Below the pieces are notes generated by a model. The model ran no database searches and was not told where the DNA came from. It was given only the letters and a program-made list of their open reading frames with translations. A DNA stretch of 52,735 nt, the filler included, from Jimgerdemannia flammicorona (lineage: Eukaryota): the NCBI GenBank assembly GCA_003990765.1. It is 2 parts of 2 records of this genome, joined end to end, with 100 filler letters (N's around TTAATTAATTAA, not from the genome) between each part and the next. Parts side by side here need not be neighbours in the genome. Positions count along the whole stretch, not along the records: positions 1 to 26,320 come from RBNJ01000736.1; 1 more part is not named here. One strand, given 5' to 3'. The position numbers and the translations under genes are program-made. The stretch's first letter is position 1, and each line of letters starts with the position of its first letter. This document shows, piece by piece, positions 2,031 through 52,077 of the stretch.

Positions 2031-2679
2031 TATGTGTTGTTGTTCAAATTCAATCAGATGATGTGGTGTTTGGTAGGGTCATTGTCGGATTGGTCTTACA
2101 TCTCTAGTATGTATAGGGTGTTCTCCGTATTGATATGGTGGGAAGTTATCATATGTAGTAGTAAATATATCTTTGTACTCCTCTATCAACTCCTGTATCT
2201 GTTGTTGCTGGTCCTTGGTCAGAGTTGTCTCGATGTCGATGGCTTTGATTGCTGAATTTGCTGAGTCTTCCTCCCTGGTACCATCAGTCTCACTGGAGAG
2301 GGCTTGCCGTTTCCTAAGAATTCGAAGACTTCTTCCTCATAGGTGTCTATCAGTGGTTCGAAATATCCCAGTGTTGTTCCCTTGGGGATAGTTATCACTT
2401 CGAAACCCAAGTTTCTGATAGGGATGTGGATCAGTGACATCTGGTCATGAATTCGTTCTTCAGCCAGGAGGATGTGGTGTTCCTTTTGAAGCTCCAGTGA
2501 TGGTACAAATATCAAGTTGTTTGTTTCTACTGGTAGGTGCACATCTAGGCCTTTTTGCTGGTAGGGCTATAGGAGGATGTCTTCTCTTGCTTGGATTGGG
2601 CAGCAGATATGGGGTCTCATTTGTCGGAATTGAGCAACTATTGCTAAATGAACCTCGATAGGTGGTGTCTGTAGATTTC

Positions 2680-3090
2680 TATTGGTGCTTCCAAAGCCTT
2701 CTTGTCCTCTGTTGGTATCTTCTAGTTGGTCTACCTCTTGGATGGTCAGCTGTGATGTCTTGATAAATAGGATTTGGCAGATGGCTTCCATAGGACTGAA
2801 GAATTGGCTGGTTTTACTAGAATTATGGATAATGGCCTTTAAGGGACCTCGGTAGTCCTGATCGATAACTCCTCCTTCTACTGTGACTCCTTTGGTTGCC
2901 CATGAGGATCTTGAGGCCAATTGTCTATAATACCCAGGTGGTATAGTGAGTGCAATCTGTAGGTCAAAAGTCCTGGTACTTCTGGGTCGGATTCTTGCTT
3001 GGTAGGGGAGGCAGAGGTCATAACCAACTGATCCTTCTGTTTGTGCAAGAGGTGGCCCTGCCCAGGGGGAAAGCAGCTTGACCTGGATAA
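2680..3090 (-). CDS. dut: dUTPase domain within E1 pol (between PR and RT)
   Basis: All five dUTPase motifs: GYDL, RSS, GVIDQDYRG, ICQ, RGQEGFGST. Confidence 0.93.
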
Positions 3091-4189
3091 TTGATTGAGC
3101 TTTGAGAAATGGTGCTTCAGCTGTTGCCATTGTAGGTGAGAAGTCTATGCACTCTAGTTTGAAGAAAGACCAGTGAGCTCCTGTCTTTGAGTTTCTTGTG
3201 TAATTGAATTCAGTCTTTCCTAGAGGGTCCAGAGCTTCCATAAGGATGAAGGCAAGGTTGACACCTTCTTTTCCTTGATGAGGGTGGCAGTACCAGCGAA
3301 TGATGGCAAGAACTTCCAATGGTAGGCCCCAGATAGAGGTCTTGCTCTTGAACTTGCAATCTCCTTCATAGTTGATTTCTTTGCACTTCTGACAGATCCA
3401 GTGAATTCGAGGTTCTTAAAGGGTGGGATCCTTTCTCTTGACTCGACTCTTGTAGACATCTTCGCTGAGGTGAACATCTCGATGTTCACACTAGTAGCAG
3501 GTAAAGGTTTTTCCGCAATCACAATGTCCCTTCTTGACAAAGTCTTCATTTCGCTGTTTGACCTCCCTACTGGTAGGAAATCTCTTCCGATACTTGTCAT
3601 AGGTGGGCTGTGTGATCTGGAAGGCCCGGGTGATAGTGTAAGAGCTGTTGCTTTCTCCTTCGATAGTAAGGGACTCGAATGTTTGGCAGGTGAGGATCTT
3701 CTGTCCTTCCTTATAGGTCTTCTTGAAGGTCTTCGGGATTGGAGGTTGTATTCGGCTGTGGGATGGTGCTTGCTTCAATTCGTCCTTGTCAACAATTTCT
3801 GGCATTGGAACCTTCTTGAGATCCAGAATTCGGCAATTGCTGCAATCATCTCTTTGTGAGTGGAAGCTGATGAAATGTTCACATATGCCTCGACGAAAGG
3901 CTCGCATGATCTGATTTTCTACCAGTGGTGGTGGTGGTTGAGCAGAAGGTCCTGCAAACTCAAGTGCTGTCCTTGCATTAATGGCTCTATCAATGCTTTC
4001 TTCCAGACCTTCAACACTAATAACTCCAATGAAAGAGTCTTCTTGTTCACTTTCTTGGTTCCTTGGGGCATCGAAATCACTTCCTAGTTCTTGTAGAAAA
4101 TTGGCCTCGCTTCCATCCTCAGTAGTGGTGGGGGTGTCACCATGTTCTTGCAATTCTGTTTCTGAGGCTTGATTTGTCCTTTTAGATGA

Positions 4190-4540: not shown

Positions 4541-5091
4541 ACTTTTCCATTGGTGAGTCTTGTATATTGATGTTCATGTCACTGGCTCTCATGGACTGTG
4601 TGGATAGTGCTAGGTTCTTGAGTGTGTGGTCCTTGGACTGGAAGTCTCTTGGTATCTTCCTTGGCTTCTTTCAGGAATTTTTGCCTGACCTCTAGTGCAT
4701 TTTTGAGGACTTGCTCAACTGTGAGACCAGCATTCTGTAGGCGGATATGTTCCCAAAGTGAGGCTGCTGCATGGGGCTTGCTGCTTCTTCAGTTTCTTGG
4801 TCCCTTGGGGTGTAGTCTCTCATTCCTGATGGGCATTTTGTCAGCTGAAGATTCTATGCTCATACGCTCATCTTCTTCAAGGTCTGGCAGAGTAGAGCTG
4901 GGGGTTGTCCTAGATGGTCTGGCTTCTGGTTCAGGAGTATCTCTTCTAACTCGCTTCTCCTGTTCTTGTGGAGTGTCTGAAGAAGAATGGCCATGTCGCG
5001 GATGCTTGCCGGTGGATACCATTACTGGCAGTTGAGGTGGGGGGTTCCTTCGTGGTCTTCCTCATCCTTGGGTCTCTGCAGGGGCAGCTTC

Positions 5092-6400
5092 CTATGTCAC
5101 CTTGGATGGAAAAGCCTCGAAGTATAGGTAGATGTCATCTTCTTGACCATGGAGCCAGGCTGCTTCTTCTTCCATTTCCTGAGTCTCCTCATCTACCTGA
5201 AAGAGGTTGACATTTCTGTCATTGGACTGGGTAGATTGGTTCCTTGGACAATTCCTCTGGATGTGGCCTTGATTTCCGCAGTTGAAGCAGGTGGGACCAT
5301 AGGAACCAGTCGCTGATGAGGCTGTAGTTGCAGCTGGTAGTGTGGGGGCAGGACCTCTGTTGTCTTGTTGCTGGTAGTCTGGTCTGTTATCATGATGGTA
5401 GTCTTGTTGTCTTCTACCTTGGTTGTTCAGCTGGGCAACTGTAATGGCCAGGTCCTTCATTTGCTTGGTGAGCATTGTCATGGGGTCTTCTTGAACTCTT
5501 GATGGTTGCTGCTGCTGTGGTTGCCTGAATGGAGTCAGATTTGTGGGTGCTGGTCTGTTCTCATAGTTGGCTATCTGGGCTCTGAGGAAGGCATTCTCTT
5601 GCTCCATGGTTGTTCCTTGGGTCCTTGGGGTTTCAGCTTGGATTGGCTTGGGATAGCCTTGTACTTGTTGTGCTGGTCTATAATCTGCTTCCCAACATCC
5701 TTGTGCTCCAGCAACTTGCTGTTCAATGTTTCGATATCCCATCCTGATAACTTGCCTTTGGAGTTCTGGGTATAAGCCATTGAGGAAGGTTGAAGCTAGA
5801 GCCAGTTGGACTACTGGTTGAAGGTTCGCCTTGATCATTTGAGCTTGAATCCGATGGTAGAAACTCTTGGGAGTTTCATTGGCAGTTTGGCTCATGTAGG
5901 TCAAAGCCTCCTGTGCTTCTTGTTGGTGCTCGAATCCATTGAACTGGGCACAGAGCCAGGCTTTGTGAATCATGTATCTTGCTACATGGTTTCTATCAGG
6001 TTGAAGGCTGTCATTTAGTTCCTCTGCATGGATTTCTCCTCTGGCTTGCTTGGCTTGATTATACCTCTGTAGGGCTGGTCCTCTCAAGAGTGACTCCACG
6101 ATTCTGAGTTTTCTTGCAGCATCCCATTGTTTGGCGGCTGCTTGAACTTCAATTTCTCCAAAGAATTCCTTGATATCTTCATTGTCTGCACCATGGAACT
6201 TCTGAAGGTAGCTTATGTCTGGCTTGTCTTTACTATCTGAGTATTGTTCAGGGGTGGGGGATCTGGCGGATCCTCGGGGTGGTGGGGAAGGTGGTGGTGC
6301 TAGTACTTGATGATCTAGTGGTGCTGGCAGAGGGTGGTGTCTTGGTGAGGGTGAGAGTAATCTGGCTCTTCTAATTAATGCTGGGGTTGAAGTCCTGGGT
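5092..6400 (-). CDS. gag: E1 gag (capsid plus CCHC knuckle); Pro/Ser-rich N-terminal extension may reach ~7050
   Basis: KFHGADNEDIKEFF...LRGPA; SQTANETPKSFYHRI; FLNGL; CFNCGNQGHIQRNC. Confidence 0.88.
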
Positions 6401-7113: not shown

Positions 7114-7655
7114 AAATGTGGCATTGGTTATGCATAATGAACTTCGACTGCACAGCTCAATGTGTGCCACTTGGTGAAGCATGCGATGTATAACTGAAGA
7201 CTTTGGTGACGTTCATGGGTCGATGGTCACGTGACAGGTCATTTGATTCATGTGGTAATTGATAACAGTGGGAAAACGGAGGTTGATGGCTCGCTCGTCC
7301 GTCTTGGTTAACTTGAAAGATTTCTGGCGGTCGCTTGGGTCTTTGGCAGTGGCCTTGTATCCTTTGGCTGGGTAACTTGGGTTTCCGGGTCTTGAATCTC
7401 GAATGGCGGTCGAATGCGCAGTCTGAATGCATGGTCTGAATCCTTGGCTGGATCCTTGGGTTTCTTGGTTTTCTGGGTCTTGAATCTCAAATGGCGGTCT
7501 GAATGCACAGTGGTCGGGTAACTTTTTCTTTCTGTGGCAAGAGAAAATTCTTTAACTCAAACTTCTGAGCGATCCATTGCTCTAGGTTGTTATCTTGTTC
7601 TTAGAATTTATCTGGTCTCTTGGAGGTGGTGTGTTTTCTCTGTAAAACTGTCTGA

Positions 7656-7710
7656 CTGAGGTTTATTTACTCTAAGAATATGGGTTATTTATACAAGTTT
7701 GCTAGCTATG
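7656..7710 (-). promoter_or_regulatory. LTR TATA box and adjacent poly(A)-signal block
   Basis: Minus strand CTTGTATAAATAACCC...TAAATAAACCTCAG; near-identical at 11317, 17528 and 25709. Confidence 0.7.
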
Positions 7711-7827
7711 GGGGAGGGGGCACGACTAAGGCTAAGGTATACTATATTGTGGCAAACTTCACTATGCTATTGGCTTGCACAATGCGAGGTGTAGGCTATT
7801 GTTTACTACGGATTGGGTTGTACGGGA

Positions 7828-8290
7828 TAGCAATGCTGGATTCGGACTTGCTGACCAAAACGGTGAAAATGGTGGTACTGGATAGTAATGCTGGAAATGG
7901 TTGTGCTGAGTAGCAATGCTGGATTCGAACTTGCTGACTTACTGACATGGATGGATATGGATACAACGATTGTTGCCAGAAATGGTTGTGGAGGGTAGCA
8001 ACGCTGGATTCGGACTTGCTGACAAAAATGCTGAAAATGGTGGCACTGGGTAGCAATGCTGGATTCGGACTTGCTGACTTGCTGACATGGACGGATACGG
8101 ATATGACGATTGTTGCCAGAAACAGTTGTGGAGGGTAGCAATGCTGGATTCGGACTTGCTGACAAAAACACTGAAAACGGTGGCACTGGGTAGCAATGCT
8201 GGATTCGGATGAGCTGACATGATACAGTGATTGTCGCCAGAAACAGTTGTGGAGGGTGGCAATGCTGAAAATGGACTTGCTGACAAAAGC
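7828..8290. repeat. Higher-order tandem repeat in LTR U3 (core TAGCAATGCTGGATTCGGACTTGCTGAC)
   Basis: About 6 full and 2 partial cores with two alternating, reused spacers (~140 bp higher-order unit). Confidence 0.9.
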
Positions 8291-8318
8291 TTGATTCTCA
8301 CAGCTGATGGGCAGTACT

Positions 8319-9289
8319 CTAGAGGGAATAGTAGTACCCTTCATCCACGGCAGACAAATCTTGCAGGGTTGCAATTTCTTCTTCATCATATCTCTCCTCA
8401 AAGGGGGGGAGTGCCGGCCAAGAGGTGAGGGGGTAGAAAAGTGGCCAGTCATCTTCAACAACATTCTCCAACCCTTGAACAGCTTGAATGCAGACAGAGG
8501 ACTGGTAGACTCTCTGTTGCTCCTCTTCTTCAAGACTCGTCAGTTTCAGTATCAGAGGGGGTTTCTTCAGAGGCAGGGTCTTGGAGTTCTTGGGCTTCTT
8601 CTTCAAAGACAGGGACCTCTTGGGCTTCTTGATTCGGTTCCCAAATGATGAGATCTGACAGGGTGGTGGGTGGTTGGAGTGGCTCCAACGGGTGCTTCTA
8701 TGGTAATGGGTGGTCCTTCAAATATCTCCATAAGACTCATTAGATGACCTTGATGGTTGTCTCAGAGTAGGGTGGTGTGGAAACCTGGCTGAGTAGGTTT
8801 GATTTGTTGGCTTCCTACAGCAACCCGGTTGCTACCAGTAGAGTTGGCTACTTCTGATTCTATCCAGTCTGCATCTTCAGTTGAGAGACGGGCAAGACTG
8901 CCAGCTGTTACTCCTTGCAAGTGTGCTATAGCCCAGGGAATATGGTGGAAGATTTGGTGGACATGGAGGGCTCTCTTGATTAGCCAGCTGGTGGTTAACA
9001 TTTTGGCAATAAGGTCTTCCCGGTCATCTTCTTGAGTCTCATTGCGAAGGCGGTGTCCAATTTCATAGTCATGCCAGAGGGTCATTCATTTGGTAGTATC
9101 TTTGAGCTGTTGGGTCATTATATACCAGTAGTTGATGAAGTGTCCAAGGTCCTCAGTGTAGAATTTCAAGTGTTCGGAAGTATCTGGGCACCAGATGACC
9201 TTCTTGATAGCTTCAAAGATCAGGGTCTTTGGGCCAGGCAAAGGGGTAGAGCAGCAGGAGGTCTGGTTGGATTGGCGAATGGGAGGCAT
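8319..9289 (-). pseudogene. Accessory ORF inside E1 LTR (unknown conserved domain plus acidic tail)
   Basis: MPPIRQ...IFEAIKKVIW...YEIGHRL...RALHVHQIF...AIAHLQGVT...; two TGA stops and probable frameshifts; homologues at 11641, ~18310, 33415 and 41945. Confidence 0.75.
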
Positions 9290-9496
9290 TGTGTGGTGGT
9301 TACTTGGTTCTTTGGTGCCGATCCCTGAGGCAGAGTATGGTTCCTTAAATAATGTGGTCTTCATTTTGGCTCAGATCATCTTGTCTTCTTTTGGGATGAT
9401 CACCTAATGGGTCAGGCTGTCTATTTGATTGTCACACCATTATGTCGTCTGATCTTAGCAGTCATCGGTACTCCATTGTCAATTGTGTACATCACA

Positions 9497-11136
9497 ATAT
9501 ATAATTTATAAGAAAAGTTTTTAGTCATAGTTATAGCTCTCAAAAAATAGTATTATTTCTTATATGATAATTTTTTATAATATCTCTTACTCTATAATAT
9601 AGTCAAATTTATCTGTATCATATTATAGAATAAGAAATATAAATTACTATACCCTTAAATATATTTAGTCAATACTAATCTATAAATAAGTATATTAAAT
9701 AAAGATCATTCTATTTTTAATATAGAGATTAAATATATATCAGATAAGATTAACTAAATAATAAATAAATTTTTAAGATATAGAAAACAAACTTATTTAT
9801 TTTATTAAAGTTATTAGTAATATTATTTAACTCATTAAAGATAATTATCAGATGAATAATCTATTTCCAAATTTTCTTTAGTACTATTAAAATCTAAACT
9901 CTGAAGTATCTAGAGTTATAAAAAGAATAATTAAGAGATTTATATATTGTGATAAACTTATTTATAGAGTTTATAAATAAGTAGTAATATCCAGAAATAA
10001 TAATCTCAGACTTAAGATTATTTATATAATATTTCAGATATAGAAAAATTTTAGTTTAATAAAATCTATAATCTTATCTCTCAAAAATATTATTAATAAA
10101 ATATTTAAAGATATTAAAATCTTTATAGTCTTCTTTAATATATATATTAAAAATTCTAAAGTAGTAATAAGCTATTAGCTAGTTTATATAACTTTTTTCA
10201 ATTTAATCTATAACTAAAAATTATATTATAATAGACTTTATTATATAACTTTTTAAAATTAGAAATAATTAGAATATTATTATTATAGTTATAGACTATC
10301 TTAGTAAATAAATCTACTTTATACTAATAAAAATTACTGCAATAGTCTTTGAAACTACTGAAATATTTTTTAACTTTATATTTAGATTATACAAATAATA
10401 TATTAAGTAGTTTAGTTTTCAATTATATAAAGTTTATAAGTAACTTTTAAAGTTATTTTTTTATTTTTTATATATCAAGTTAAAATTCTTCTATAATTTA
10501 TATATTACTCTAAATATTAATAAAACTCTAAAGCAGATACTTAGTATCTTTAGTAGATCTTAATAAAAAAAAAACTTCCTTCTTTTTAAATTATAAATAA
10601 TACTTAAGAACTTTAAGTACTATTGAAATATTGAGATAATAATTTGATATATTAATATATAATTATACTATTCTATCAGTTTTATATTATTCATTAGTAA
10701 TATATGAAATATGCAATATATAACTTTAATAAAATTAACCTTTCTTTTACAATAAAGATTATGAGCCCCACTAGTACTAAGTGACGATAATAAAAAAAAA
10801 AATACCTTTTTAATATATATTATACTAAAAATATCAAGTAATAATCAGTCTAGCAATATAAGATATACCAATTATAAATGTTCTAGTAATAATAGGAGTA
10901 GTTCTTATTAGTTTTAGTTATTAGTATAAATATGAATCCTAATATTGAGAAATATTTTATATGTATATCATTTGAGTATTCTATATATCAAATCTTATAA
11001 AAGAATATAGCTTAGCAAAGTATATAAAGCTATAAGTACAAATTCAAGATTATGATACTGTAAATAATCACTAAGTATTATATAAGATTATATTTATATA
11101 GTCAAATTTATAAAAAAAAGCTCATAATATATACAA
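9497..11136. other. Extremely AT-rich, probably heavily C->T-decayed repeat relic
   Basis: Sharp compositional boundaries, TA-rich, almost no CpG, no ORF in the track. Confidence 0.45.
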
Positions 11137-11603
11137 TATAACATAGTGGACGCTTACTCTTGAAAGTACATCAGATTTCTGTATCTTGAAAACTTGACTG
11201 TTCTGACTCTTGCAGAGTCTCTTGGGTTGCAGGAGAGGGTGGGTAAGTTCGAAGTGTATCTGCCTGCTGGCTTACTAGTTCCTTTGCTATCTCTTTGCTT
11301 TTGAACTATTTCGATCTGAGGTTTATTCACTCGAAGATACTAGGTTATTTATACAAGTTTGCTAGCTATGAGATGGTTACTGGGTTATGTGGCTAAGTTA
11401 TGAGTCATTTAACACTTTGCGAAATATTTCACCAATTGCAAAATACTATACTATATCAAGAAGCTCGATCTCGCACTTTGTGAAATATTTTGCAAGTAGT
11501 GAAATTGAGGACTGCAAACTATGTGGCTATACTACTTTGGGACTAGGTACAATCAAGTATTTGTTCCTTATTTCCTTCTTTCGAATCTGGTTATACCATC
11601 ACA
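11137..11603 (-). repeat. 3' LTR of E2
   Basis: Direct repeat of 17349-17815; preceded on the minus strand by the purine tract AAGAGGAAG (~11605-11613). Confidence 0.93.
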
Positions 11604-11640
11604 ACTTCCTCTTGAATAGATGATCTCATCCTTGAAGCAT

Positions 11641-12078
11641 CTATTCAAACTCCCAGACTTCAATGGTCTGTATGGTCTTGTATTGTGCAATTTGTTGCAT
11701 TACTGTTTCCAAATGGTGTTGCCTGACTCAGTTGAAGTCTGAGGGAGTCACTCCTCACAGGTGGGCTAGTGCTGGTTTATCCTCTTGAAATAGCTTGTGG
11801 ATTCTCTTAGCAATGGTAATCTGGAAATAGGAGAGCTGGCATTCTGCGATCCAATTTTCTTTGGTCATTTCTGGGTCTTGGTTGAGTACTTGGGCAAGTT
11901 TGAAGTACTCTTAAAATTCGTTTTGATGCTGATAGGCCTTGAAGTGTGAGATTTGAGAGAGATGAGTCTGTATAATGCTTTGGATACTATCATAAGACTC
12001 CTCTATCGTCAGAGGCTCAGTGGTATATCATTGTCTCTCGATGGCTCTTTGGGCAGCACTAGTGATCTTGAGTACCAT
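11641..12078 (-). pseudogene. E2 ORF3 (145 aa, env position), accessory protein of unknown function
   Basis: ATG about 13 nt after the pol stop; MVLKITSAAQRAIE...YFKLAQVL...IAKRIHKLF...ALAHL*GVT...; 4 internal stops, all readable as CGA/CAA->TGA/TAA. Confidence 0.8.
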
Positions 12079-12090
12079 TGCAGTACTTTT

Positions 12091-14680
12091 GTTACTGGCT
12101 ATGATATTTCTTGAGTCAGTTTCAGTGAATGGTGGTGGGGATTATTGTGCCTGAGGGCTTTTGTAATCAGAAAGTGGTCCCTTTTATATCTTGCACTAGG
12201 TAAGGTCCTTTCCACTTGGGCTTCAGTTTTCATGACCAAGAAGCTTCTACCATGTTCTGGTATATCAGGACTTCATCTCCTATCTTAATAATCTCCAGGG
12301 GCTTGTGGATCTTTTCCGCATTGCTCCATTGTAGTGCTTGTGCCTTGATTATGTAATTCTCTGCCTTTTTCCTAATTTGATGTAATCTTCATATCTCTAT
12401 GTCCACATACTTCCAGACTGCATCATTATTTGCTGACAAATTTTCACTAGAACTTTCTTCTCTGAACAGTATCTCCCAGAGAGTAAAGTGGGTACTTTGT
12501 GATCTGATGTCCTGGAGAGCGAATAATGCTATTGGCAGATAGTGATCCCAGTTTTCATAGTTATCACAGATCTTGGTGATAACATTCTTGAGGGTCTTGT
12601 TGGTTCTTTCTGCTTGTCCATTTCCTTAGGGGTGATAGGCTGTGGTCCAAATGCACTGGATCTTGTACTTCTTATAGAGAACCTCAAAGAGCTGGTTCAC
12701 AAATTCTGTTCCTCTATCTGTAGTTACTTGTGTTGGTGTCTTGAACCAGCAGATAATTTCCTTGTGGAAGAAATCAGCGATTGACTGTGTATTGGCTTCC
12801 TTGAGGAGTCCTGCTTCTATCCACTTCATAAAAAGGTCTAAGATGACAATGATATATCTGTTACCAGTCAGGTTCAAGGGTAGAGGACCGATTACATCCA
12901 TTGCTATATGGGCAAATAGTACTGGTTTTATGCATGCTGATCCTGGGGCCTGGTTTCATTGGTCTTGTTTCTGTTTCTGGTATTTATTACAGGTTCTGAC
13001 AAATTGTCTGATATCTTCTTCCATTCCAGGCCACCACATGGTTCTTCTTACTTTGTCATATGTATTTGTTTCTCCTATGTGGCCTTGTTCATGTACTTCT
13101 TTCATTACTTGATTCTTCTAGTGTTCGGAGATGACTAATTGTTGTCCTTTCTTGAGTATTTCTCCATCAGTTTTGAATTGTTTCTATGTCCGATTAATAA
13201 TTGTTTTTGTCCATTCTTCCAGATACAGGGGCATCTTTCACTGCCCCAGATAGCTGATGATTTCATAGTACAGCTCCCTATTCATGGTGATTTTATAGGG
13301 GTGAGGTCCTTCAGAGTGTCCGTAAGAGGGCATTGGCATTGGCATTGGTTCTTCTGGGGCAGTGAGTGATTGTGGCATCATATGCTTGCAGCTTCATGAA
13401 CCATCGGGCATAGATTCCTTTGGGTTCACTGGTGGTGAGCAACTAGATGAGTGCTGAGTAGTCTGTCTGGATAGTGAAGTGTCTTCCCGCTAGGTAAGAG
13501 TGGAACTTCTCTATAGCCCAGATGACTGCAAGACATTCTAGCTTGTATGACTCATAGGACTGCTCCACTCCACAAGTATCTCGGCTGAGATAGGCTACTA
13601 CATACTTGGTGCCATTCTTCTTCTGTGCAAGGACAGCTCCAAGTCCCATTGCACTGGCATCTGTCTGTAGAATAAATTCTCGTATCCAGTCAGGTCTTCT
13701 CAAGATTGGGGCCTGGGTCAGCCTGATCTTGAGTTCATCAAAGGCTAGTTGCTGTTGTTGTGTCCACTAGAACTTGATCTCTTTTCTGAACAGATTGTAG
13801 ATAGGGCTGGCAATGTGGGAGAATCTTCGAATAAATCTCCTGTAATAGGATGCTAGTCCCATGAAGGCTCAGGCTTCAGTGACACTAGTAGGTACCGGAT
13901 ATGCTGCTATTGCCTTGATCTTTGTGAGATCTGTGTGTGTTCCTTTATGGTTGATGATGTGTCCGAGGTATGCGATTTCTTCTTCTCCAAATTTGCATTT
14001 CTTGGGCTTGATGTAGAGACCATTTTTGTGAAGCATTCTGAGGATTTCCTTGATATATTCCAAGTACTCCTTGGCTGTTCGGCTGAAGATGATCATATTA
14101 TCCACATATACCATCATCTATTTTTTCATAACATCTCTGAAGATGCTATTCATTATTTGCTGGAAGCTTGATGGTGCATTGTACATTCCAAAGGGCATGT
14201 GGAGATAAACATAGGTTCCATCAGGAGTAATGAAGGTTGATCTTTTACTGGCTTCAGGTATAAGGCCAATTTGGTAGAATCCTGAGAATAGATCCAGATT
14301 GGTGTAAAATTATGATTTATTCCCCAGCATGATAAGAATGTCACCAATGTTGGGCAATGGTTGTCTATCCTTCTCTGTGACCTCATTGAGTCTTCTATAG
14401 TCTGTGTAAAGTCTTGGTGCAAATTCTCCTGGTCAGCTTCCTTTCTTTGATACAAGAACAATAAGTGAAGACCAAGGGCTGCTGGCTTCCTTGATGATAC
14501 CAGATTCCTCCATTACCTTGATTTCAGTCTTGAGCCATTCTCTGTATGCTGGCAGAATGGGGCAGGCTTTTTGATAGATTGGTTTCGCATCTCTAGTATT
14601 GATGTTATGATAGTATAAGGGTTTCTTAGTCTTGATGTCCTTGAAATCTGTAGCCAGTACATCTTCAAATGTATGCAAGA
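12091..14680 (-). pseudogene. E2 RT, RNase H and integrase with GPY/F motif
   Basis: ASSPWSS, MPFGMYNAP, VYVDN(D)MII, LQTDAS, MDVIGPLP, TDRGTEF, KWKGPY. Confidence 0.93.
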
Positions 14681-14794
14681 GGTTCTGCAACTCCTTCCTG
14701 AGGGGAAAGTTCTTTCCGATTATATAAGTATGTTTGTCTTGGCTTTCCTCCTTCTTGTGCTCCAATTCTGTAATCTTGGTTGCTATGAGGACTC

Positions 14795-15200
14795 CTCTTT
14801 CTGTAGAGCCGAATCCAGCTCTTCCTTGCTGAGTTTGTCTGATGTTTGTGACTTCCTTGATTCTTGGGTTAAGGACAGGTAGGATGAGCATTTGTGCCAG
14901 CCGATCCTTCTTCTTTACTTCAAATGGGATTGTTGGATTATGATTCCTGGTGAGGAGGAGGATTTCTCCTGTATAGTCTGAATCAATGACTCCTCCTTCT
15001 ATGGATATTTCACTTTTCGCTAAGCTGCTCCTTGTCTTGAGGATTCCGACATGACTTAGTGGGATGGTTACTTTAATTCCTGTTCCCAGCATAGTAGTGG
15101 TTTGTGGTTCGATAATTGTGTGTATTATGGTAGATAGATCCATTCCTGCTGCATTCTCCGATTTGTACTGTGGCAAGACTACATCAGGGTGGATCCTTCA
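14795..15200 (-). CDS. dut: dUTPase domain of E2 (between PR and RT)
   Basis: AAGMDL, RSSLA, GVIDSDYTGEI, RLAQM, GRAGFGST. Confidence 0.93.
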
Positions 15201-15509
15201 TATCTTGACTGTGATGTCTTCTTCATTATTGCTGTCATTCAATAGCTCTGGTGGTCCATCTTCTGGTTCCTCCTGATTCTTCTTTGGCTTGTTGGAGATC
15301 TTTTTCACTTCAATGATGCAGGAGTAGCAGCAATCCAAGTGCTGGGCACAGTACATTCTTTCACCATGGGGGCACCTTCCTAGTGGGGTGTATCCGTCTG
15401 CGATCCTTTTGTACCATTCTTCCTCTATCCACTGCTTATCTTTTCCTCTCTTTATGGTAACCATATAGGCTTCTTCTTCTTGCTCTTCCTCCATTTCTGG
15501 GCAGACTCC

Positions 15510-15880
15510 TTTGTGGACATTGATGGGAATTCTGATCTTCTTTCCCCAGTAGATGATTTGCATCTTCTGTGCACTGAGATCGATCATTGCCTTGGCTTTG
15601 TGAAGCCATTAATTGCCAATGAGGATATCATAGTTGGTTGCATTGGTGATGATGATATCTACTAGGATAATGGCTTCTCTAAACTTGATGGATATATCCC
15701 AGATCTTTCCCAGAGGTGTTGCTCGTGTTCCATTAGCTGTAACAAATACCAATTTGGTGGCTTCTTCTATCTCTCAGCCTAGGCAGTCTACTGCTTTCTT
15801 AGTGATGAGACATCCTCCTGCTCTCATATCGATGATGGCTTCAAAGACTTGGTCCTCGATCTGGCAGGTAGCATAGGCAG
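15510..15880 (-). pseudogene. E2 aspartic protease
   Basis: FEAIIDMRAGGCLIT (DTGA altered by transitions), TANGTRATPLG, YDILIGN. Confidence 0.85.
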
Positions 15881-16376
15881 AGGTTTTGTGATTGTCTTTA
15901 CTTTCTTCTCCTGAGTCCTCTTGAATGTTATTGGCCTCAGTTATCTTCCATCCTTGCTCCTTAGTTGTTTTGGCAAGTCTGAATCTTATTTGTTGTCTAA
16001 ATATTTGGATTTCTGCAAGCTGACCAAAGGTTATATTGATCTTTTGTTGGCTAAGGTCCTTGAAGATATCATACTTGAAAGTCTTGGTCTTGCAAAGTTT
16101 ATTTTCTTTCTCTCCTTTACTGGCTGGGGTAGTTTCTTGGATAATATCTTGAACTGCTTCTTCCAGTTCCATATCTTGGTCCATCTCTTCAGCTTGGCTT
16201 TCAGTGGCCGTTTCTATCTGCTTTTCTACTGGATTCTTCTTGGGTCTTCCTGGTAGTCTCTTGTAGGGTTCCTTGTGAACATCTTTCTTGATAGTCTGAG
16301 CAGGATAGGCCTCCCATTCTTCTTTGTCAGAATCTCCAATTTCCTTGAAGGTAATTGTATTGGCCTGTTTCTTGTT

Positions 16377-17234
16377 TTATATAGTATTGCTTGGTTGAGC
16401 CTTGTGCTTGGTTTCGCTCATGCATTCATAGGAGTAGTGGCCTTCTTCTCCACAAGTATAGCAGGTGCCTTTCTTCTTGTCTGAGGTGGTGGTAAACTTC
16501 TGGACAGGGTGGCAGTCTCTTCCTCTAATCTTCTTTACTACATCCCCCAAGTGGGCAGTCATTTCCATGAACCTCTTGGTAAGTTCCTCCAAAGGGTCAC
16601 TGTTCTTTTGCTGCTCTGTAGCTTTGGGCTGAGGTTTGTTTTAATTGATCATTGTGGTGGGGATCACACTGGTTGACTTAGGTGCCTCAATTCTGACTCC
16701 TGTAACTCTCTCCATTATATGGTCTTGTGGGTGTCTAGCTATCCAGTATTGCTGAGCATAGGTGACCTTTTGTAGCAGATCCAGAATCACTGGTGATGAG
16801 CGGATGGCCATGGCTATTTCTGGATAGACTCCTTTCATGAAGGTTGCTTTGGCTATTTTATCTCAGATAGCAGTAGCATAATCTGCAAGGATTATCTGAT
16901 ATTGAATTCTGGTATAGAATGTGTTTGGATCCTTGCTCATTCCTTGGCATATTGTATTGAGCTGATCCTTCAGGGCTTGCTTGATCTCGTCTGTATAATA
17001 TGTATTTCGGAGCCAGGTCTTCTGTGCTGTCAGTATAGCATTGGCATCATTTCCTGTATGGGTTGCGGCTGTGAATGCTGCTCTGGCAGGACCTCGTAGG
17101 CTGAAAAGCATGAGGGCTACTTGCTGTGCTGCTGTCAGGGTCCTTACAGTGGCATACTGCTCGAAATCATCAATGAAGGTGATGATTGATTCATCTGAGA
17201 TATATCCATGGAATACTGGTGGTCTCATATGCAT
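16377..17234 (-). pseudogene. gag: E2 gag
   Basis: PPVFHG...FIDDFE...LRGPA; CYTCGEEGHYSYEC zinc knuckle. Confidence 0.88.
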
Positions 17235-17348
17235 CTTGTCTGAGTATTGGGGCTTGGTTTGTATGATTGTTTGGGTAGGGGTGGTTGTTCATTGTTTAGC
17301 TTGAAAGTGAGGGATTCATCTTGAATGACCAGTCAATGGACATCAAGT

Positions 17349-17815: not shown

Positions 17816-18059
17816 GCAATAATAACTTATAAGTTATATGAGACTCTATATAATAATTATATATAAGTATTTGTATCAAATTAATTTTACCTAAAATCTC
17901 AGCTATTCAATTTATGAAATAAGTCTAAGAAGAGTATCTACAAATACACTAATTATATTGATAATCTAGTGAATCAAGTAAATTTCCTCAGTATATCTGC
18001 AGATTACATTGATAATGAAGATAAGATTATAGTACTCATAAGAGAACTTCTAAATATAT

Positions 18060-20116
18060 TGTGATATATATAACTGATAATACTGAAATAAGGAATAATG
18101 ATAACAGATCTTATAATATCAGATGATAACTTCAATCTTATAATATAATAAATAGATAATACTATCTGATGACTCTTTTAACTTATCAAGTGATCTAACC
18201 AAAAGAAGCAATGATAATTCAAGCTAAAATGAAGACTAAATTATTTAAAGAATTGAGATCTAGTATATTAAGAAGAATCAGAATATATATATAAGAATAT
18301 AATATCTCCTTCCTACCTCTCTAACTAGACTTTCTACTATAATACTTCTTTATCAAAACTGAAGAGTCTTGTCCTCAAAGCCATCAAAATGGCTATCTGG
18401 TACCTAGACACCACTAAGTATCTGAACTTCTATACTGAAGATCTTGGATATTTTATTAACTACTACTATATAATAACTTTGTAATACAAGAATACTACTG
18501 ACTGAATAGACCTCTGACATAACTATGAAATTGGATACTGCCTCTGTAATAAACCACAAGAAGATGACCAAGAAGATCTTATTACCAAATTATTAACCAC
18601 CAACTGGCTGATTATGGGAGTTCTTTATATCTACCAAATCGTCTATTATGTACTTTAGGCTATAGCTTACTTATAAGGAGTTACTGATAGAAATATAGTC
18701 TACCTCACTACTGAAGAAGTCAATTGGAAAGAAGTTGAAGATGTTAATTATATTAAGAGCAACAGTATTACTGTAAGAAGTTAACAAACTGAATCTACTC
18801 TGCAAGGCTTTTATATAACTTCTCTCTGATATAACCATCAAGGCTATCTAATGAGTCTTATGGAAATCTTTGAAGGACTACTTATTACTATTGAAGTACC
18901 TACAAGAGCTACCACAACTACCCCCTACTCTGTTAGTTATATGTCATATTACATTATATAAAAACTGAACTAAGAAGTCTCAAAAACTCCTATTCAAAAA
19001 GAAAAAGAACACTAAGACTACCCAAACTGAGGAATCCCAAGAAAATAAATAAAGAATCTACCAGTCTTCAGTCTGCCTTCAAGCTATGTAAGAGTTAGAA
19101 AACATCATTAAAGATAACTGGTCACTATTCTATCCCCTCACCTCTTGGTCAGTACTTTCTCTCTTTAAAGAGTGATATGATGAAATCACAATCTCATAAG
19201 GTGATTTTCTTGTTACTGGTAAAGTATATAATGCCTTTTAAGATAGAGATCAATATTCTTTATCAGTAATACAGAATAAAGGCATTTCAGCCTTATTCAA
19301 TTTAGTTAATATCACTCTCTATATAAGTATATTATAGTTTTGCCAAATATAGAATAGCTCTCCTATTACCTAAACATTCTTTGCCAGCAGTGCAGATCAA
19401 GAGTGTTCTAATCTTACCCCATTGATATAGTCTTTACTACTGATATACTACTACTAGCAAACCAATAGTATATCCAGACCTTATCATTAGAGTATAGTAG
19501 AAATATATATATACTCCTAAAGACAAGAGTGAATATATCTCAGTCAGATAGTTTAAAGTAAAAAGAATTTACAGAGAAACACACTACCTTCAAAAGTTGA
19601 GAGATTACTCTTACCAACTCAGAAATTGATACAAAATACAAACCACTACCTCAAAAATCATTATAAAACTCAAGATACAAATTGTACTGTTATAAAAATT
19701 GCCACAAAATTTAAGATATAAGTCAGTTAAGACTGTTATAAGAAATTTAAGATACAAGGCCTTAGAAATCAGATACAAGATTCAAGAAACAATAGAACAC
19801 TATTCAGAAATATATAGAATAATCACCAATATATTAAGAAGCTCAGAAAATCTGCAAAAACAATTGCCAGAAATCTTATACTATTTTGCTATTCCAAATA
19901 TCCAATAATATGACCAATGACTTGCAATATACAAACTTCAATAATATGGGAACTTTAACTTGATACAAATGAGAAATATAAACAAATTGAATAGTAGTTG
20001 AACTGAATATTGAGCTAGAACATTATCAGATAAAAAGATAAATAATATATAAGATAACCAGTTAACTAAGTAGTATATCAAGTAGTATATTCTACGAATA
20101 AGACATATATATTATA
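18060..20116 (+). repeat. Old, decayed LTR of an E1-related subfamily in opposite orientation (right end approximate)
   Basis: Starts tgtgatatatataactgataa, matching the E1 LTR minus-strand start tgtgatgtacacaattgacaa; contains the LTR-ORF homologue. Confidence 0.7.
18310..19230 (+). pseudogene. Decayed copy of the LTR-encoded accessory ORF
   Basis: LVLKAIKMAIWYLDTTKYLNFYTEDLGYFINY...YEIG...EDDQEDLITK...IYQSSVCLQA...WSLFYPLTSW. Confidence 0.75.
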
Positions 20117-20801
20117 ATGAGCCTGGCTCAATGAAGGTAAATTACAAGGTTGGGAATTAGTATAGTTTGGCTTGAGTCCCTAGTTACTTTGTCAAAAGCA
20201 ACAAAATATTCTAAGATTCTGGTATCATGTTGGTGTTTTAGTGGTATAATAGTTATTCTGGATATAACAGTAGTTCCTTTAGTCATATAGTGGTCAATTT
20301 GTATATTGATTTTCTTATTAAGACAGTTCTCTAGATATAGTGGTAATTTGTATATATATGGTGTGGTAATCTTCAAAAGTATATGATTTCTATATGATAA
20401 TCTCTTTATATAGTATAATGATCTTGAAGTGTAATGGTTTGGCAATTGGGTAGTTTTTCTTATATAATTTTGATGTAATGACCTCTATGTAGTATTACAA
20501 TCTCCTTATATATAATAGTTGGAATAGAGGATGACATAGATCCTTCTGAATCAGATTTACTGGGAATAATACTTGGCAGTTCTTCTGAATCAGACTCACT
20601 GAGAATGGTGAATAGCTCGGATAATGCAGATAATTTAGATAACTCAGTAACTCAGATAACTCAGATATTACAGATTCTTCCTGAATCAGCAGAGTTCTGA
20701 GAAATAACTCAGATATAGATAACTCAATAACTCAGATTCTTAACAAGTTATATCAAAGCCTAGCTTCATTTACATGGGGTTACTTTGTAGACTGACTCCA
20801 C

Positions 20802-21440
20802 TGTGAAGTTGTATCAGAAGACTGGCTTATGGCAAGTTTTCTTAAGGCTCTCTGAGAATATGAGTTTTTCTTCAAAAGGTAGCAAAGTTCTTTCTTAAAC
20901 TTTGGCAGCAAATCTTCAGGCATATCTGGCAAGCAAACCATGGCTTTGTATTGGAAAGTAGACCAGAGTAAAAAGTAAGCTCACAATCTCCTAGCAGTGG
21001 TTATAGAGTTCCTCTCAAAGTAGAGAAGACAGACTTATCTTTTGCTTTGAATTTTGAACTCTTCTTTATATTAAAAAGCAAACCAGAGTTGAAATATATT
21101 CTGACTCTTATCTCTGGGGTATTTTATATATTTGTGGTTGCTATCAGATTACTATGTTGCTAATTATAAATTGTTATTTATGGCAGGTGTGCTGATTCAG
21201 TACAGGTGTACTGATTTATTACAGATGTACAGATTCGGCACAATTATACCTTATCTGGTAGTCTGGCTATTTATACAGTTTTTTATAGCAATGGTTACTG
21301 TGTCTGGTTACTATACTATGTTTTCATATCATCTGACTAGGTTATAATTTGAGTGGTATATTTTAGTTTATCAAATCAGCCCCCACTAAAAGAGGGTCTA
21401 ATAAGAGATTATAGTTGAGGCCTCATATATAATGAGTACA
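20802..21440 (-). repeat. Putative 5' LTR of another element inserted into the YR-type element; start of its internal region at ~20120-20800
   Basis: tgtg...gtaca termini; TGG 1 nt after its minus-strand end; TATA-like tatataaaatacccc at ~21116-21130; truncates the RT ORF. Confidence 0.4.
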
Positions 21441-24190: not shown

Positions 24191-24199
24191 ACTTAATAA

Positions 24200-24886
24200 T
24201 TATAGTGGACCAGTAGAGTACCAGACTGAAGGTGATCTTTGAAGCTGGAGTAGATACTATATCAGTGAGACCTTCTGATTAATATAGAGTGATTAGGTGG
24301 TAGGTGTCACTCTTGTCTACTTTTGGTAATTTATGTGATTAGGCCCCAGTTATTGGGAGTGATTGGGGGTCTGAGGCTACTTAGATTAGGTATCTTAGCT
24401 ATACTTAACTAGAACTGAGAACAGATATATGTAGTAATATAATTGAGACCCATAAGCTTGAGTAATAGAGTATTGGAGGTCACCTCCCATCTTACATATA
24501 AGTTCTCTACTCACCTCATTATAGAGAACCAGATTCTATCTACTATTCTGTACTTTGAGAGAAGGTTTTCTTTACCTATCACTCTTCTTGAAGTAGTAGG
24601 GGCTATGCAAATTGACTTAAACATAGTCTTATACATACATATGTTAGAGTTTTGGACATATATCTTTAGCATATGGTTATTACTCCCTAGTAGTAGGAAG
24701 AGCATGATATACAGAATAAGATACAGATAATTTTGCCCTACAGTATCTGATATAATTGAGCTACTGAATAATAGCTAGCCTAGGTTCAATTGAAGTAGAG
24801 TGCTCAGTGGGTAGTGGGAGAGGGTTTTGGTCTATATTGTCTAGGTTCTCTTTTAATAAAATCTGTGGGACTTTGAGTCTATTAAA
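24200..24886 (+). mobile_element. Old 5'-truncated copy of the 1.2 kb poly(A) retroposon (family R1)
   Basis: Aligns to ~28475-29160 with many transitions; ends aataaa...gagtctattaaa. Confidence 0.8.
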
Positions 24887-26320: not shown

Positions 26321-26420
26321 NNNNNNNNNNNNNNNNNNNNNNNNNNNNNNNNNNNNNNNNNNNNTTAATTAATTAANNNNNNNNNNNNNNNNNNNNNNNN
26401 NNNNNNNNNNNNNNNNNNNN
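26321..26420. other. Artificial assembly gap/linker (N44-TTAATTAATTAA-N44)
   Basis: Exactly 100 bp, with a central 12-mer giving stops in all six frames. Confidence 0.97.
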
Positions 26421-33392: not shown

Positions 33393-33414
33393 ACAACTAT
33401 AACTACCAAGATCT

Positions 33415-33800
33415 ATAACTACATCTGTACTGATATTTAGAATACTATTATCAACCAAGCTATATCTTTTCTACTCCTCATGAATATCCATAGCCTAGCA
33501 CCTCTCTATTTTGTAAAAGCCCAATGGAATCTCTGAACATGCTTAGTAAAGTCTACTGAATCAGATAAATCTCAAGCTACTATCAGATCAGATGCCTTCT
33601 AGAAGATATAGTTGAACACTACTATGATATAGATATTACTCAGATATCTCAACACTAGAAAATTATTGTTTGTAAATACTGAGAACTCTTTTACAAGTAC
33701 AGTACCTTTATTCCCTACCTCCAAGTTACTACTACCAAAATGATTACTACTCTATCTTATGGCTAAATTAATGACATAGTATAAGAATATAACCATAAGT
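33415..33800 (+). pseudogene. Accessory-domain ORF in E6 5' LTR
   Basis: Decayed YYQIRCLLEDIVEHYY...ELFYKYSTFIPYLQVTTTKMITTLSYG. Confidence 0.65.
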
Positions 33801-43627: not shown

Positions 43628-44032
43628 TGTAACATTTTAGCATAGTTTATTTCTTTTCTCTGTCTTTCTTGAATATTCTATAACCTTCCAGCACTTTCCA
43701 TATACTTAGAAATCTCCTTCTTGATACTGAGCATTAACTAGTACTTATTTAGTTAGTCACTAAATGTCTTGGAAACTTATAGAACATTATTTGTCATCAT
43801 TTGTCAACTTTGCCAAGAACTTTCCTCTTGGTATTTTCTTTTGATTTCTCAGATTCTTCCAGATCCTTCCTTCAGATCTTGTATAAATATCCCCTTTGTT
43901 CTCATGAATAAAGCCTCAGAATATTTTCTCCCAGAAACCCTTCGAGAACACTTGAATCCTTAAGTAACTCTTTAAGTTACTTAGAACTACCAGAACTAGT
44001 TACTTCCTTATTTAGAAACTAGAACTGTTATA
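43628..44032 (+). repeat. 5' LTR of E7
   Basis: tgtaac...tgttata; direct repeat of 51673-52077. Confidence 0.95.
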
Positions 44033-44062
44033 CTTAGTAGCAGTGGTTAAGTTATACTTAGC

Positions 44063-45252
44063 TTTTTTTGTTTTTTTGTTTTACGGACTCTATGTCCCAT
44101 GGATTTTTATTGGAAGGGAACCTAGACTATATAGGCCAAAACCCTCCCCCACCACCCATCAAGTACTGCCCCCCCATTAACCTAGGCTAGCTATTGTTCA
44201 GCAGCTTGACCATACCAGGCACAGTAGGGCAAAGTAGCCTGCACCTCATTCTGCACACCATGCTCTCCCTACCACCAGGGGAAACCCAGCTATACACCAA
44301 TAACCGAAAGCGCATACCTGAGAACCCAACGTATGTATAAGGCCACGCCCAAGCCAAATAGAATAGCCCCTGTCACCCCAAAGAGAATGACAGGCAAAGA
44401 AAAAAACCCTCATCAAAGCACAACATGGTGGGTAGGGCCTGGTTCTCCCAGTCGAGGTGAGTAGAGAACTTACATGTGAGGTGGGAGGAGACCCCCAATA
44501 CCCCACTACTCAAGCCTGTAGGCCTCGATCACGTTGCCGTGTCAGCTCCTGGTTCCAGTTGAGTGCAGCCAAGATATCTAAAATGGGTAGCCTCGGGCCC
44601 CCCAACCCCCCCTGATGACTGGGGCCCAACCCCATGAATCGCCAAAAGAAGCCAAGAGTGACACCTACCACCTAACTATACTGCACCAATCAAAAGGCCC
44701 CACTGAAGCAGCACCTGCCCCAGCCCTAACAACCACCCCCAGCCTGGCACCTTACTGGTCCACTGTAATCGCCCTTCCTCCTATCTGTGATGGCCATCTC
44801 CCCTCCCATCCTGACATCACCTGAAAAACAGTCACCTATGCCAGAACCACACTCACTGGGAAGCTTGCCAAAGCCAGAGGGCCCCACCACAGGCACTGAG
44901 GACCTGCAGGTAACCTACACTGAGCACTTGATGCCCAAGGTCGGCTGACTCCCTACATAGCCCGAGACACACTGAGATAACTCCTTGTTGGCGATGGTAA
45001 AAGGAAGAAAGCACTGCACCAAAACGGGTATACCCCAGATGCAGCTAAAGGCACCAGAATCCGCAAAAAAGTGGAGAAAGCACCAATTCGACACTGACAA
45101 AGGGGCAACTCATCACCATTGCCCTCCTCCCACCATGCTCCTACAGGCACAGCAAACCAACCCGAGGTAGAGGGGGTAATATTAGGGAAAAGGGGACTCG
45201 GAAGGTCACCTACCAAACCTTGTGACTAGTAAGGTAGTGGAGAAAGGAGCTG
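44063..45252 (-). mobile_element. R1 poly(A) retroposon, apparently full length, just downstream of the E7 PBS
   Basis: TSD AAGTTA(T/C)ACTTAGC (44049-44062 / 45253-45266); T-rich tail at the left end. Confidence 0.93.
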
Positions 45253-50384: not shown

Positions 50385-50386
<2 letters not shown>

Positions 50387-50419
<33 letters not shown>

Positions 50420-51587
50420 GGACTCATGTCCCGCGGAATTTTATTGGAAGAGAACCTAGACTATATAGGCCAAAATCCTCCCTCACCACCCACCAAGCAC
50501 TGCCACCCCATTAATCTAGGCTAGCTATTGTCCAGCAGCTTGACCATGCCAGGCACAGTAGGGCCAATAGACCCGCACCTCATTCTGCACACCATGCTCT
50601 CCCTACCGCTAGGGGAAACCCAACCATATACCAATGACCGAAAGTGCATGCCTGAGAACCCAACATATGTACAAGACCACGTCCGAGCCGAATAGAATAG
50701 CCCCTGCCACCCCAAAGAGAATGACAGGCAAAAAAAAAACCCTCATCAAAGTACAATACAGTGGGTAGGGCCTGGTTCTCCCAGTTGAGGTGAGTAAAGG
50801 ACTTATACGTGAGGTGGGAGGAAACCCCCAATACCCCACTACTCAAGCCTGTGGGCTTCGATCATATTGCCATGTCAGCTCCCGGTTCCAGTTGAGTGTA
50901 GCCAAGATGCCTGAAATGAGTAGCCTCAGGCCTCCTAATCCCCCCTGACAACTGGGGCCCAACCCCACTGACTGCCAAAAGAGGCCGATAGTGACACCTA
51001 CCACCTAACCATGCCACACCAATCAAAAGGCCCCACTGAAGCAGTACCTGCCCCAGCTCCGATGACTGCCCCCAGCCTAGCATCCTACTGGTTCACCATA
51101 ATCGCCCTTCCTCCTATCTGTGATGGCCATCTCCCCTCCCATCCCGACAACACCCAAAAAGCAGTCACCTATGCCAGAACCGTGCTTGCCGGGAAGCTTG
51201 CCAAAGCCAGAGAGCCCCACCACAGGCACTGAAGACCTGCAGGTAACCTACACTGAGCACTTGACACCCAAGGTCGGCTGACTCCCTACGTAGCCCGAGA
51301 CACACCGAGACAACACCTTGTTGGTGACAGCAAAAGGAAGAAGGTGCCGCACCAAAACGGGTATACCCCAGACGCAGCCGAAGGCACCAGAATCTACGAA
51401 AAAGTAGAGGAAGCACCGATCTGACACTGATAAAGGGGTAACTCATCACCATTGCCCTCCTCCCACCATGCCCCTGCAGGCACAGCAAACCAACTTGAGG
51501 TAGAGGAGGTAATAATAGGGGAAAGGGGACTCAGAAGGTTGCCTACCAAACCTTGTGACCAGTAAGGTAGTGGAGAAAAGGTTGTTG
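50387..51587 (-). mobile_element. R1 poly(A) retroposon, apparently full length, in the E7 3' UTR
   Basis: TSD AATTTGAAGTTTC (50374-50386 / 51588-51600); ~30-nt T tail; same 5' end as the 44063-45252 copy. Confidence 0.93.
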
Positions 51588-51672: not shown

Positions 51673-52077
51673 TGTAACATTTTAGCATAGTTTATTTCTT
51701 TTCTCTGTCTTTCTTGAATATTCTATAACCTTCCAGCACTTTTCATATACTTAGAAATCTCCTTCTTGGTGCTGAGCATTAACTAGTACTTATTTAGTTA
51801 GTCACTAAATGTCCTGGAAACTTGTAGAACTTTATTTGTCATCATTTATCATCTTTGCCAAGAACTTTCCTCTTGGCATTTTCTTTTGATTTCTCAGATC
51901 CTTCCAGATCCTTCCTTCAGATCTTGTATAAATATCCCCTTTGTTCTTATGAATAAAGCCTCAGAATATTTTCTCTCAGAAACCCTTCAAGAATATTTGA
52001 ATCTTTAAGTAACTCTTTGAGCTACTTAGAACTACCAGAACTAGTCACTTCCTCATTTAGAAACTAGAACTGTTACA
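51673..52077 (+). repeat. 3' LTR of E7
   Basis: tgtaac...tgttaca after the PPT. Confidence 0.95.

Follow-up and report, generated by a model that had tools for sequence, protein, structure and literature searches.

A decayed frame beside the polypurine tract of a Jimgerdemannia flammicorona retrotransposon is a very probable copy of an orphan accessory gene

Does a reading frame that is interrupted by four stop codons, and that is located between the integrase and the 3' LTR of a retrotransposon, represent the remains of a gene? The question is raised by positions 11641–12078 of a 52,735-nucleotide stretch of Jimgerdemannia flammicorona DNA (GCA_003990765.1), referred to here as the window, in which two parts of two genome records are joined with filler between them. 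A preliminary description read this frame as ORF3 of an element termed E2, and connected it to reading frames in the LTRs of two further elements, E1 and E6. We sought relatives of ORF3, considered whether its protein frame is constrained, and compared the LTRs of the elements concerned.

The E2 element and the extent of ORF3

E2 occupies the minus strand of the window. It is compared here with L001, the sole metagenome locus (1 of 317 pattern matches), which is a near-intact E2-family copy of 6479 nt. The features of E2 are as follows.

11133..11603, minus strand: 3' LTR, beginning TGTGATGG at 11603, with the far end approximate within ~5 nt
11605..11613, minus strand: polypurine tract (PPT) AAGAGGAAG, one base before the 3' LTR, the same arrangement as in L001
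11641..12102, minus strand: ORF3 as delimited by the family, with 153 codons and a TAG stop, from the homologues and the gapless L001 alignment
12059..12955, minus strand: integrase core to C-terminus (rve, GPY module), with Pfam rve at 12629–12955
12062..17345, minus strand: decayed internal region with gag (CCHC), PR, dUTPase, RT, RNase H and IN, from Pfam and tblastn
13278..13285, minus strand: RT-RNase H stop overlapping the integrase ATG, ATGAATAG, in the +1 frame and the same in L001
17346..17815, minus strand: 5' LTR, from the alignment of the LTR pair

The LTRs measure about 455–471 bp and are 90.1% identical over 455 nt, in agreement with the short LTRs (467 bp) first reported for this element. 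They are direct repeats of the TG...CA type, the PPT is placed before the 3' LTR, and the internal region follows the order gag(CCHC)-PR-RT-RNase H-IN. Pfam matches on the minus strand occur in the order zf-CCHC, dUTPase, RVT_1, RT_RNaseH_2 and rve, with the PR region aligned to L001; no chromodomain was found by Pfam. The LTRs, the PPT and the domain order together identify E2 as a Ty3/gypsy (Metaviridae) element with its dUTPase between protease and RT. When E2 is aligned to L001, stops are present at 14 of 1285 gag-pol codons, 11 of 443 integrase codons and 4 of 153 ORF3 codons. This even spread indicates that the window copy is a dead element with no special loss of ORF3; C>T / G>A decay has presumably inactivated this ORF3 copy along with the remainder of E2.

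The L001 counterpart of the overlap between RNase H and integrase is ATGAATAA at about 4612–4619, and in both copies the ATG opens an integrase frame starting MN(K/R)ELYY... A stop-ATG overlap of this kind is absent from E1 and from the element at 43.6 kb. Judging from these two copies, the integrase of the E2 family may be a separate overlapping cistron, or may be reached by a +1 shift.

In the window copy, ORF3 can be read on the minus strand from an ATG at 12078–12076 through 145 codons to a TAG at 11643–11641. Four in-frame stops are found at codons 17, 56, 108 and 117 (numbered from that ATG), and the frame contains no frameshift, aligning gapless and codon for codon with the intact 153-codon ORF3 of L001. 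The plus strand of 11641–12078 contains no ATG and many stops. The frame first described, with four stops and no frameshift, is therefore correctly placed, and belongs to the minus strand. Its stops had all been ascribed to CGA/CAA codons turned into TGA/TAA; this fits three of the four, while the first corresponds to another single transition.

The window frame read through, with X at the stops, was used as a protein query (P0001). It matches 10 of 14 candidate proteins (E 8e-68 to 3e-32, 61–80% identity), all of which are open, and P0002 (153 aa) spans its whole length (E 8e-68, 100% coverage). The contigs that bear the homologues are all 3 kb or shorter and stem from environmental or JGI assemblies; the openness of these homologues is partly a matter of ascertainment since gene callers report only open frames. 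The ORF3 family is taken here as P0002–P0012 together with the L001 ORF3. In L001, gag-PR-dUTPase-RT-RNase H forms one open frame of 1281 codons, the integrase contains one stop, and ORF3 is intact (153 aa) at 5795–6256, followed ~40 nt later by the PPT and an LTR starting TGTGACGG. The window copy shares full-length similarity with the family, as well as the same position between integrase and PPT as in L001. Openness of ORF3 in E2-family relatives, which had been put forward as a check, is hence borne out by L001 and by the ten open protein homologues.

A search of sequencing runs returned a single matching DNA run (X1, a soil metagenome; word share 0.07) and no RNA run among those listed. 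In X1, 462 short contig pieces match 11137–13200 with a likeness of 80% or more, distributed as 31 pieces with 99% likeness or above, 115 with 95–99%, 194 with 90–95% and 122 under 90%. The E2 family is thus abundant in at least one environmental sample.

Comparison within the family changes both ends of the integrase–ORF3 junction. The ATG at 12078 had been taken as the start of the gene; the family start is located eight codons upstream, at 12102–12100, where the window copy has a non-ATG codon. An ATG is present at this position in L001 (context ACCATGG) and in 7 of the 10 protein homologues, the other three beginning at an internal Met, and the 11 X1 contigs that cover position 12100 all differ in letter from the window. 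The integrase had been described as ending at LKKYHSQ, directly before a TAA at 12094–12092. This TAA is missing in L001 and represents a premature stop in the window copy; the integrase stop common to the window and L001 is the TAG at 12061–12059, which falls inside ORF3. Given the upstream family start and the shared TAG, the final 16 codons of the integrase are also covered by ORF3, which is read in the +1 frame. The distance from the ORF3 stop to the PPT is 27 nt, close to the 30 nt or so previously noted, and ORF3 of E2 is wholly outside the LTR, which sets it apart from LTR- or U3-encoded frames. In the family, ORF3 would accordingly be arranged between integrase and PPT, with its own ATG, in the +1 frame and overlapping those 16 codons.

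This overlap could also be read as a C-terminal extension of the integrase, with translation passing into ORF3 through a programmed +1 frameshift in the 16 shared codons. The +1 relation to the overlapping integrase would suit such a fusion, the ORF3 frame is open for 13 codons before its ATG in both DNA copies, and another +1 shift exists in the family between RNase H and integrase. We nevertheless consider the extension improbable, as the ATG is kept in L001 and most homologues and the window departs from every covering X1 contig at 12100. In addition, none of the 214 longer candidate proteins scored with ORF3, in fused form or otherwise, although this constitutes weak evidence. A separate ORF3 with its own ATG is the arrangement considered below.

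An orphan protein frame under constraint

The ORF3 protein is 153 aa in length and close to neutral, with a hydrophilic composition (GRAVY -0.58). In two intact homologues, neither a membrane segment nor a signal-like N-terminus was detected, the maximum 19-residue Kyte-Doolittle mean being 0.19–0.39 and the N-terminus hydrophilic, in line with the lack of an obvious signal peptide or transmembrane segment noted from the window alone. An AlphaFold2 model based on a 13-sequence alignment displays eight helices (mean pLDDT 52.9, pTM 0.36). The structure prediction that had been proposed as a check therefore yielded helices, but at this pLDDT the model is too poor for fold comparison. The protein is predicted to be soluble and all-helical.

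Searches for relatives returned the family itself. ORF3 matches no Pfam family up to E 10, and no env family among them; no relatives were found in viral contigs (0 of 201 stretches) or prokaryote genomes (0 of 20), and the ESM Atlas gave only unrelated unnamed clusters for P0002 and P0013, with TM scores under 0.5. A profile search against PDB sequences produced a single match, an asparaginase at E 0.1, which was taken as chance. A profile search of 1.84 billion representatives retrieved three proteins, all of the ORF3 family. With no relative beyond its own family among these representatives, ORF3 can be considered an orphan, non-env accessory gene.

Its location in the env position does raise the possibility of an envelope gene remnant or a recently captured host gene, the more so as accessory ORFs of LTR elements are often captured genes (PMC5408684). 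Against an envelope origin, ORF3 has neither signal peptide nor membrane anchor, and its 153 aa compare with several hundred residues for an envelope protein. Against capture, nothing similar was found beyond the family in the 1.84 billion representatives, Pfam, PDB sequences, viral contigs or prokaryote genomes, a collection from which the host genome is perhaps missing. We regard either origin as very unlikely. The preliminary reading of ORF3 as a stand-alone, non-envelope gene in the env position agrees with the homologues, L001, the hydropathy and the constraint described next.

To assess constraint, the window ORF3 was compared with that of L001. The two are 68% identical at the nucleotide level, with pN 0.20 and pS 0.74 (pN/pS 0.27). 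The corresponding dN/dS is 0.07 (bootstrap 0.05–0.22, with no replicate at or above 1), a rough value since dS is saturated and a single pair of DNA copies is involved. As a control, reading this DNA in each of the two remaining frames gave ratios of 1.48 and 1.39. The direction of the effect is clear and points to purifying selection on the ORF3 protein frame. Such selection would have kept ORF3 in the family, suggesting that the element needs the protein. Amino-acid identity between the window and L001 is 76% for gag-pol, 80% for the integrase (tblastn) and 65% for ORF3; by this comparison pol has changed a little more slowly than ORF3.

The ORF3 region borders on the PPT, a site of cis signals for plus-strand priming, and conservation could in principle reflect a cis-acting RNA or DNA element there, with the frame open in relatives by chance; this is hardly credible, as substitutions are concentrated at synonymous sites of the ORF3 frame only (pN/pS 0.27 versus 1 or more) and the frame remains gapless over 153 codons despite a nucleotide identity of only 68%.

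Taken on the sequence comparisons above, the frame at 11641–12078 is very probably a pseudogenised copy of a genuine 153-aa accessory gene of one dUTPase-bearing Ty3/gypsy family.

The E1-type LTR frame and the PPT/LTR boundary

The preliminary description further held that ORF3 is the minimal form of a domain carried by E1 and E6 in LTRs of ~2–2.4 kb, and that a shift of the PPT/LTR boundary had moved the gene into or out of U3. The features that bear on E1 are as follows.

7117..9496, minus strand: putative E1 5' LTR, 2380 bp, TGTGATG...CACA, with ~140-nt tandem repeats
8762..9289, minus strand: E1-type LTR ORF, 175 codons (9289..8765) with one in-frame stop, then a stop codon
18061..19564, plus strand: C>T hypermutated copy of the E1-type LTR, with the ORF at 18302–18826 and six in-frame stops

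The E1 block is located upstream of E1 gag and begins at 9496, directly after AT-rich DNA. Its homology to a second copy (24898–26320) stops at exactly 7117, while a third E1-type copy, heavily C>T mutated, opens with the same TGTGAT at about 18061. From these ends we infer that 7117..9496 is the E1 5' LTR, the 3' LTR being outside the window. The ~140-nt tandem repeats are found at 7800–8500 and 25850–26150, and the 18-kb copy is without most of them.

The E1-type ORF starts 207 nt inside the putative LTR. An open 175-aa homologue exists (P0013, 73% identity). No hydrophobic segment was found in the E1-type ORF, and AlphaFold2 modelling from three sequences gave a helical model with a pLDDT of 36.1. 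Similarity between ORF3 and the E1-type ORF is detected by tblastn over the whole window (E 0.002) and by blastp (E 4e-6 and 0.002). In profile comparisons, ORF3 scores 8.0 against the E1-type ORF and E1 scores 3.9 against ORF3, with the matches collinear and on the strand of the element. These are reciprocal best non-self matches in the six-frame window, the next real matches scoring below -4. Among 400 block-shuffled windows, none reached the ORF3-to-E1 score and 5 reached the E1-to-ORF3 score, while reversed decoys scored 1.7 and -2.4. An hhalign comparison aligns ORF3 columns 72–126 with E1-type columns 81–135 (probability 59%, E 9e-5), a match of about 55 columns.

On these profile and alignment scores, ORF3 and the E1-type ORF are probably homologous. 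For E1, the claim that the LTR carries the ORF3 domain is hence upheld weakly, by the profiles and the hhalign probability of 59%. The notion of ORF3 as a minimal form of the domain does not follow, since only about 55 columns align.

For E6, we took the plus-strand element at 43628–52077, which has the following features.

43628..44032, plus strand: 5' LTR, 405 bp, TGTAACA...TGTTATA
44063..45245, minus strand: retroposon B in the leader of the element, 1.18 kb, with its own 14-nt flanking repeat
50398..51578, minus strand: second insertion of retroposon B, located between the integrase and the PPT and flanked by a 13-nt repeat of its own
51673..52077, plus strand: 3' LTR, 405 bp, with the PPT AAGGAGGGGGAGA directly before it

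The LTRs share 94.6% of 409 aligned bases and have TGTAACA...TGTTACA ends, and the flanks GTCAC and GTTAC correspond to a 5-bp target duplication with one mismatch. The two B copies, positioned after the 5' LTR and before the 3' LTR, are 88% alike. A third copy, inverted, lies at 28070–29192 inside the integrase of another element, and related sequence is found at 24199–24886. The poly-T start of B, its own direct repeats of 13–14 nt at each site and the third copy elsewhere identify it as an independently inserted poly(A) retroposon. B as part of a long E6 LTR was ruled out by its position inside the 405-bp LTRs, by the poly-T and by its own flanking repeats. The LTRs of ~2–2.4 kb ascribed to E6 thus measure 405 bp, a long LTR having been imitated by B inserted twice; a poly(A) retroposon near both ends of an element can mislead annotation in this way. 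Neither profile detects an ORF3-like or E1-type ORF in 43–52 kb, so the domain proposed for the LTR of E6 finds no support in this element. Should the E6 originally intended instead be the E1-type LTR copy at 18061–19564, the E1-type ORF is present there.

The elements also differ in the place of the dUTPase, which lies between protease and RT in E1 and E2 (2570–3415 and 14436–15197, respectively) and before the protease in the 43.6–52.1 kb element (46331–46579 versus 46820–47059). E1 and E2 share the PR-dUTPase-RT order. It is a reasonable inference that ORF3 and the E1-type ORF are one gene, placed before the PPT in E2 and, across the PPT/LTR boundary, in U3 in E1. The boundary shift suggested at the outset finds agreement in the long E1 LTR with an ORF inside; it does not extend to E6, and no relic of the shift was seen. 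Specifically, the 207 nt of the E1 LTR that precede the ORF showed no integrase-like remains, and neither E1 nor E2 displayed signs of a displaced PPT or LTR end. If the gene did become part of U3, it would be copied into both LTRs in each cycle, and the LTR would be five times longer.

Proteins encoded in or across U3 of the LTR are known from retroviruses, for example MMTV Sag, lentiviral Nef and foamy-virus Bel/Bet. The E1-type ORF is likened to these by position alone, as a coding frame that lies inside the LTR, lengthens it and would be 3'-terminal in the genomic RNA. Unlike the membrane glycoprotein Sag, the E1-type ORF has no hydrophobic segment, and ORF3 of E2 is not within an LTR at all. 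No description of ORFs inside retrotransposon LTRs was found in the main texts of the open-access papers searched.

The window alternates between blocks of 26–33% GC and elements of 40–48% GC. Relative to E1, C>T changes in the 18-kb LTR copy affect 56% of CpA, 65% of CpG, 34% of CpC and 23% of CpT sites. This preference for CpA and CpG, together with the AT-rich blocks, resembles the outcome of repeat-induced point mutation or of heavy decay through methylation. Along with the dUTPase-bearing type of gypsy element, the C>T pattern would suit a fungal host better than a rotifer. No pol remnants were detected by tblastn in the AT-rich stretches 9497–11132 and 17816–21400, and several of the 26–33% GC blocks (these two and 33–43 kb) are without recognisable coding remnants. 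Other observations concern separate parts of the window. Open frames of 286 and 185 codons at 21412–22269 and 22946–23500 (minus strand) have no Pfam match and lie in a stretch of unusual positive GC and AT skew. A further LTR pair at 33414–33834 and 41942–42363 (about 420 bp, 80% alike) delimits a plus-strand gypsy element with an RNase H match at 39301–39579. Two runs of 44 N, at 26321–26364 and 26377–26420, hide the junction between one copy of the E1-type LTR and another element, which meets them with its integrase end.

Expression, possible roles and known accessory genes

ORF3 would presumably be made from the 3' part of the element RNA, through re-initiation or through a message that is subgenomic or spliced. 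The protein might act in trans on the element's own RNA, as a helper of export, packaging or translation, or it might act against host silencing. By analogy with CERV of Cer1 or with retroviral Rev-type proteins, a role in RNA handling is one we put forward only tentatively; a counter-silencing role seems rather unlikely.

The analogy draws on CERV, the extra protein of the C. elegans Ty3/gypsy element Cer1, which is required for unspliced genomic RNA to leave the nucleus and is itself translated from a spliced mRNA (PMC10309623). Like ORF3, CERV is non-env, occupies the same position in the element, is confined to a narrow lineage and evolves fast (PMC10309623). The two differ in that CERV, with 517 aa, is the product of a spliced mRNA of five exons that shares exons with gag (PMC10309623), whereas ORF3 has 153 aa and its own ATG overlapping the integrase. 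The likeness is one of description, and it is purely by analogy that an RNA export role may be considered for ORF3.

Third ORFs are not confined to Cer1. The LTR retrotransposons of bdelloid rotifers (Juno, Vesta, TelKA) bear a dUTPase and family-specific third ORFs, many of them non-env and usually expressed from spliced messages (PMC5408684). The types described there comprise env-like proteins, a GDSL esterase, a DEDDy exonuclease and transmembrane or coiled-coil proteins (PMC5408684), whereas ORF3 of E2 matches no Pfam family. Gypsy elements with a dUTPase have been described in basidiomycetes, Tuber and bdelloid rotifers (PMC2864245, PMC5408684). Among the fungal ones, PosPlaTy3 (Postia), the Phanerochaete elements and Tmt1 (Tuber) resemble E2 in having the dUTPase between PR and RT, as in PosPlaTy3-5 (PMC2864245). 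Some fungal elements are marked in a figure legend with 'additional ORFs with unknown function' (PMC2864245). The fungal dUTPase elements of that source are chromoviruses (PMC2864245), whereas no chromodomain was detected in E2. The extra ORFs of plant Tat/Ogre/Retand-type elements, such as ORF0 of Retrosat2 and RIRE3/8, are likewise orphans that evolve faster than pol yet are constrained; unlike ORF3, ORF0 is located upstream of gag-pol, is much larger and occurs in plant hosts (PMC3485330). An open-access literature search for accessory ORFs downstream of the integrase near the polypurine tract gave vertebrate ERVs only. Extra ORFs of LTR retrotransposons are therefore a known kind, of which ORF3 is a new, unannotated family.

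A joint reading would combine the position of ORF3 with the organisation of E2. ORF3 and the E1-type ORF would then be one ancient gene family, situated on opposite sides of the PPT/LTR boundary in sister dUTPase-gypsy lineages, and RT-RNase H, integrase and ORF3 of E2 would form three successive +1 overlapping cistrons with their own ATGs. We offer this as a conceivable, though not the favoured, view of the frames compared. If true, the cistron overlaps of E2 would amount to translational coupling, which to our knowledge is not known in LTR retrotransposons.

Extra genes are the least understood part of LTR retrotransposons, and a source of RNA export, host counter-defence and cell-to-cell spread. 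Read-through of decayed copies, as applied here, can recover genuine genes overlooked by ORF finders. ORF3 is a small gene without known relative, clearly maintained by selection in one element family, with a probable distant cousin inside the LTR of a sister lineage. If this kinship holds, the ORF3/E1-type pair would provide a natural experiment on a gene crossing the PPT/LTR boundary and on the evolution of LTR length.
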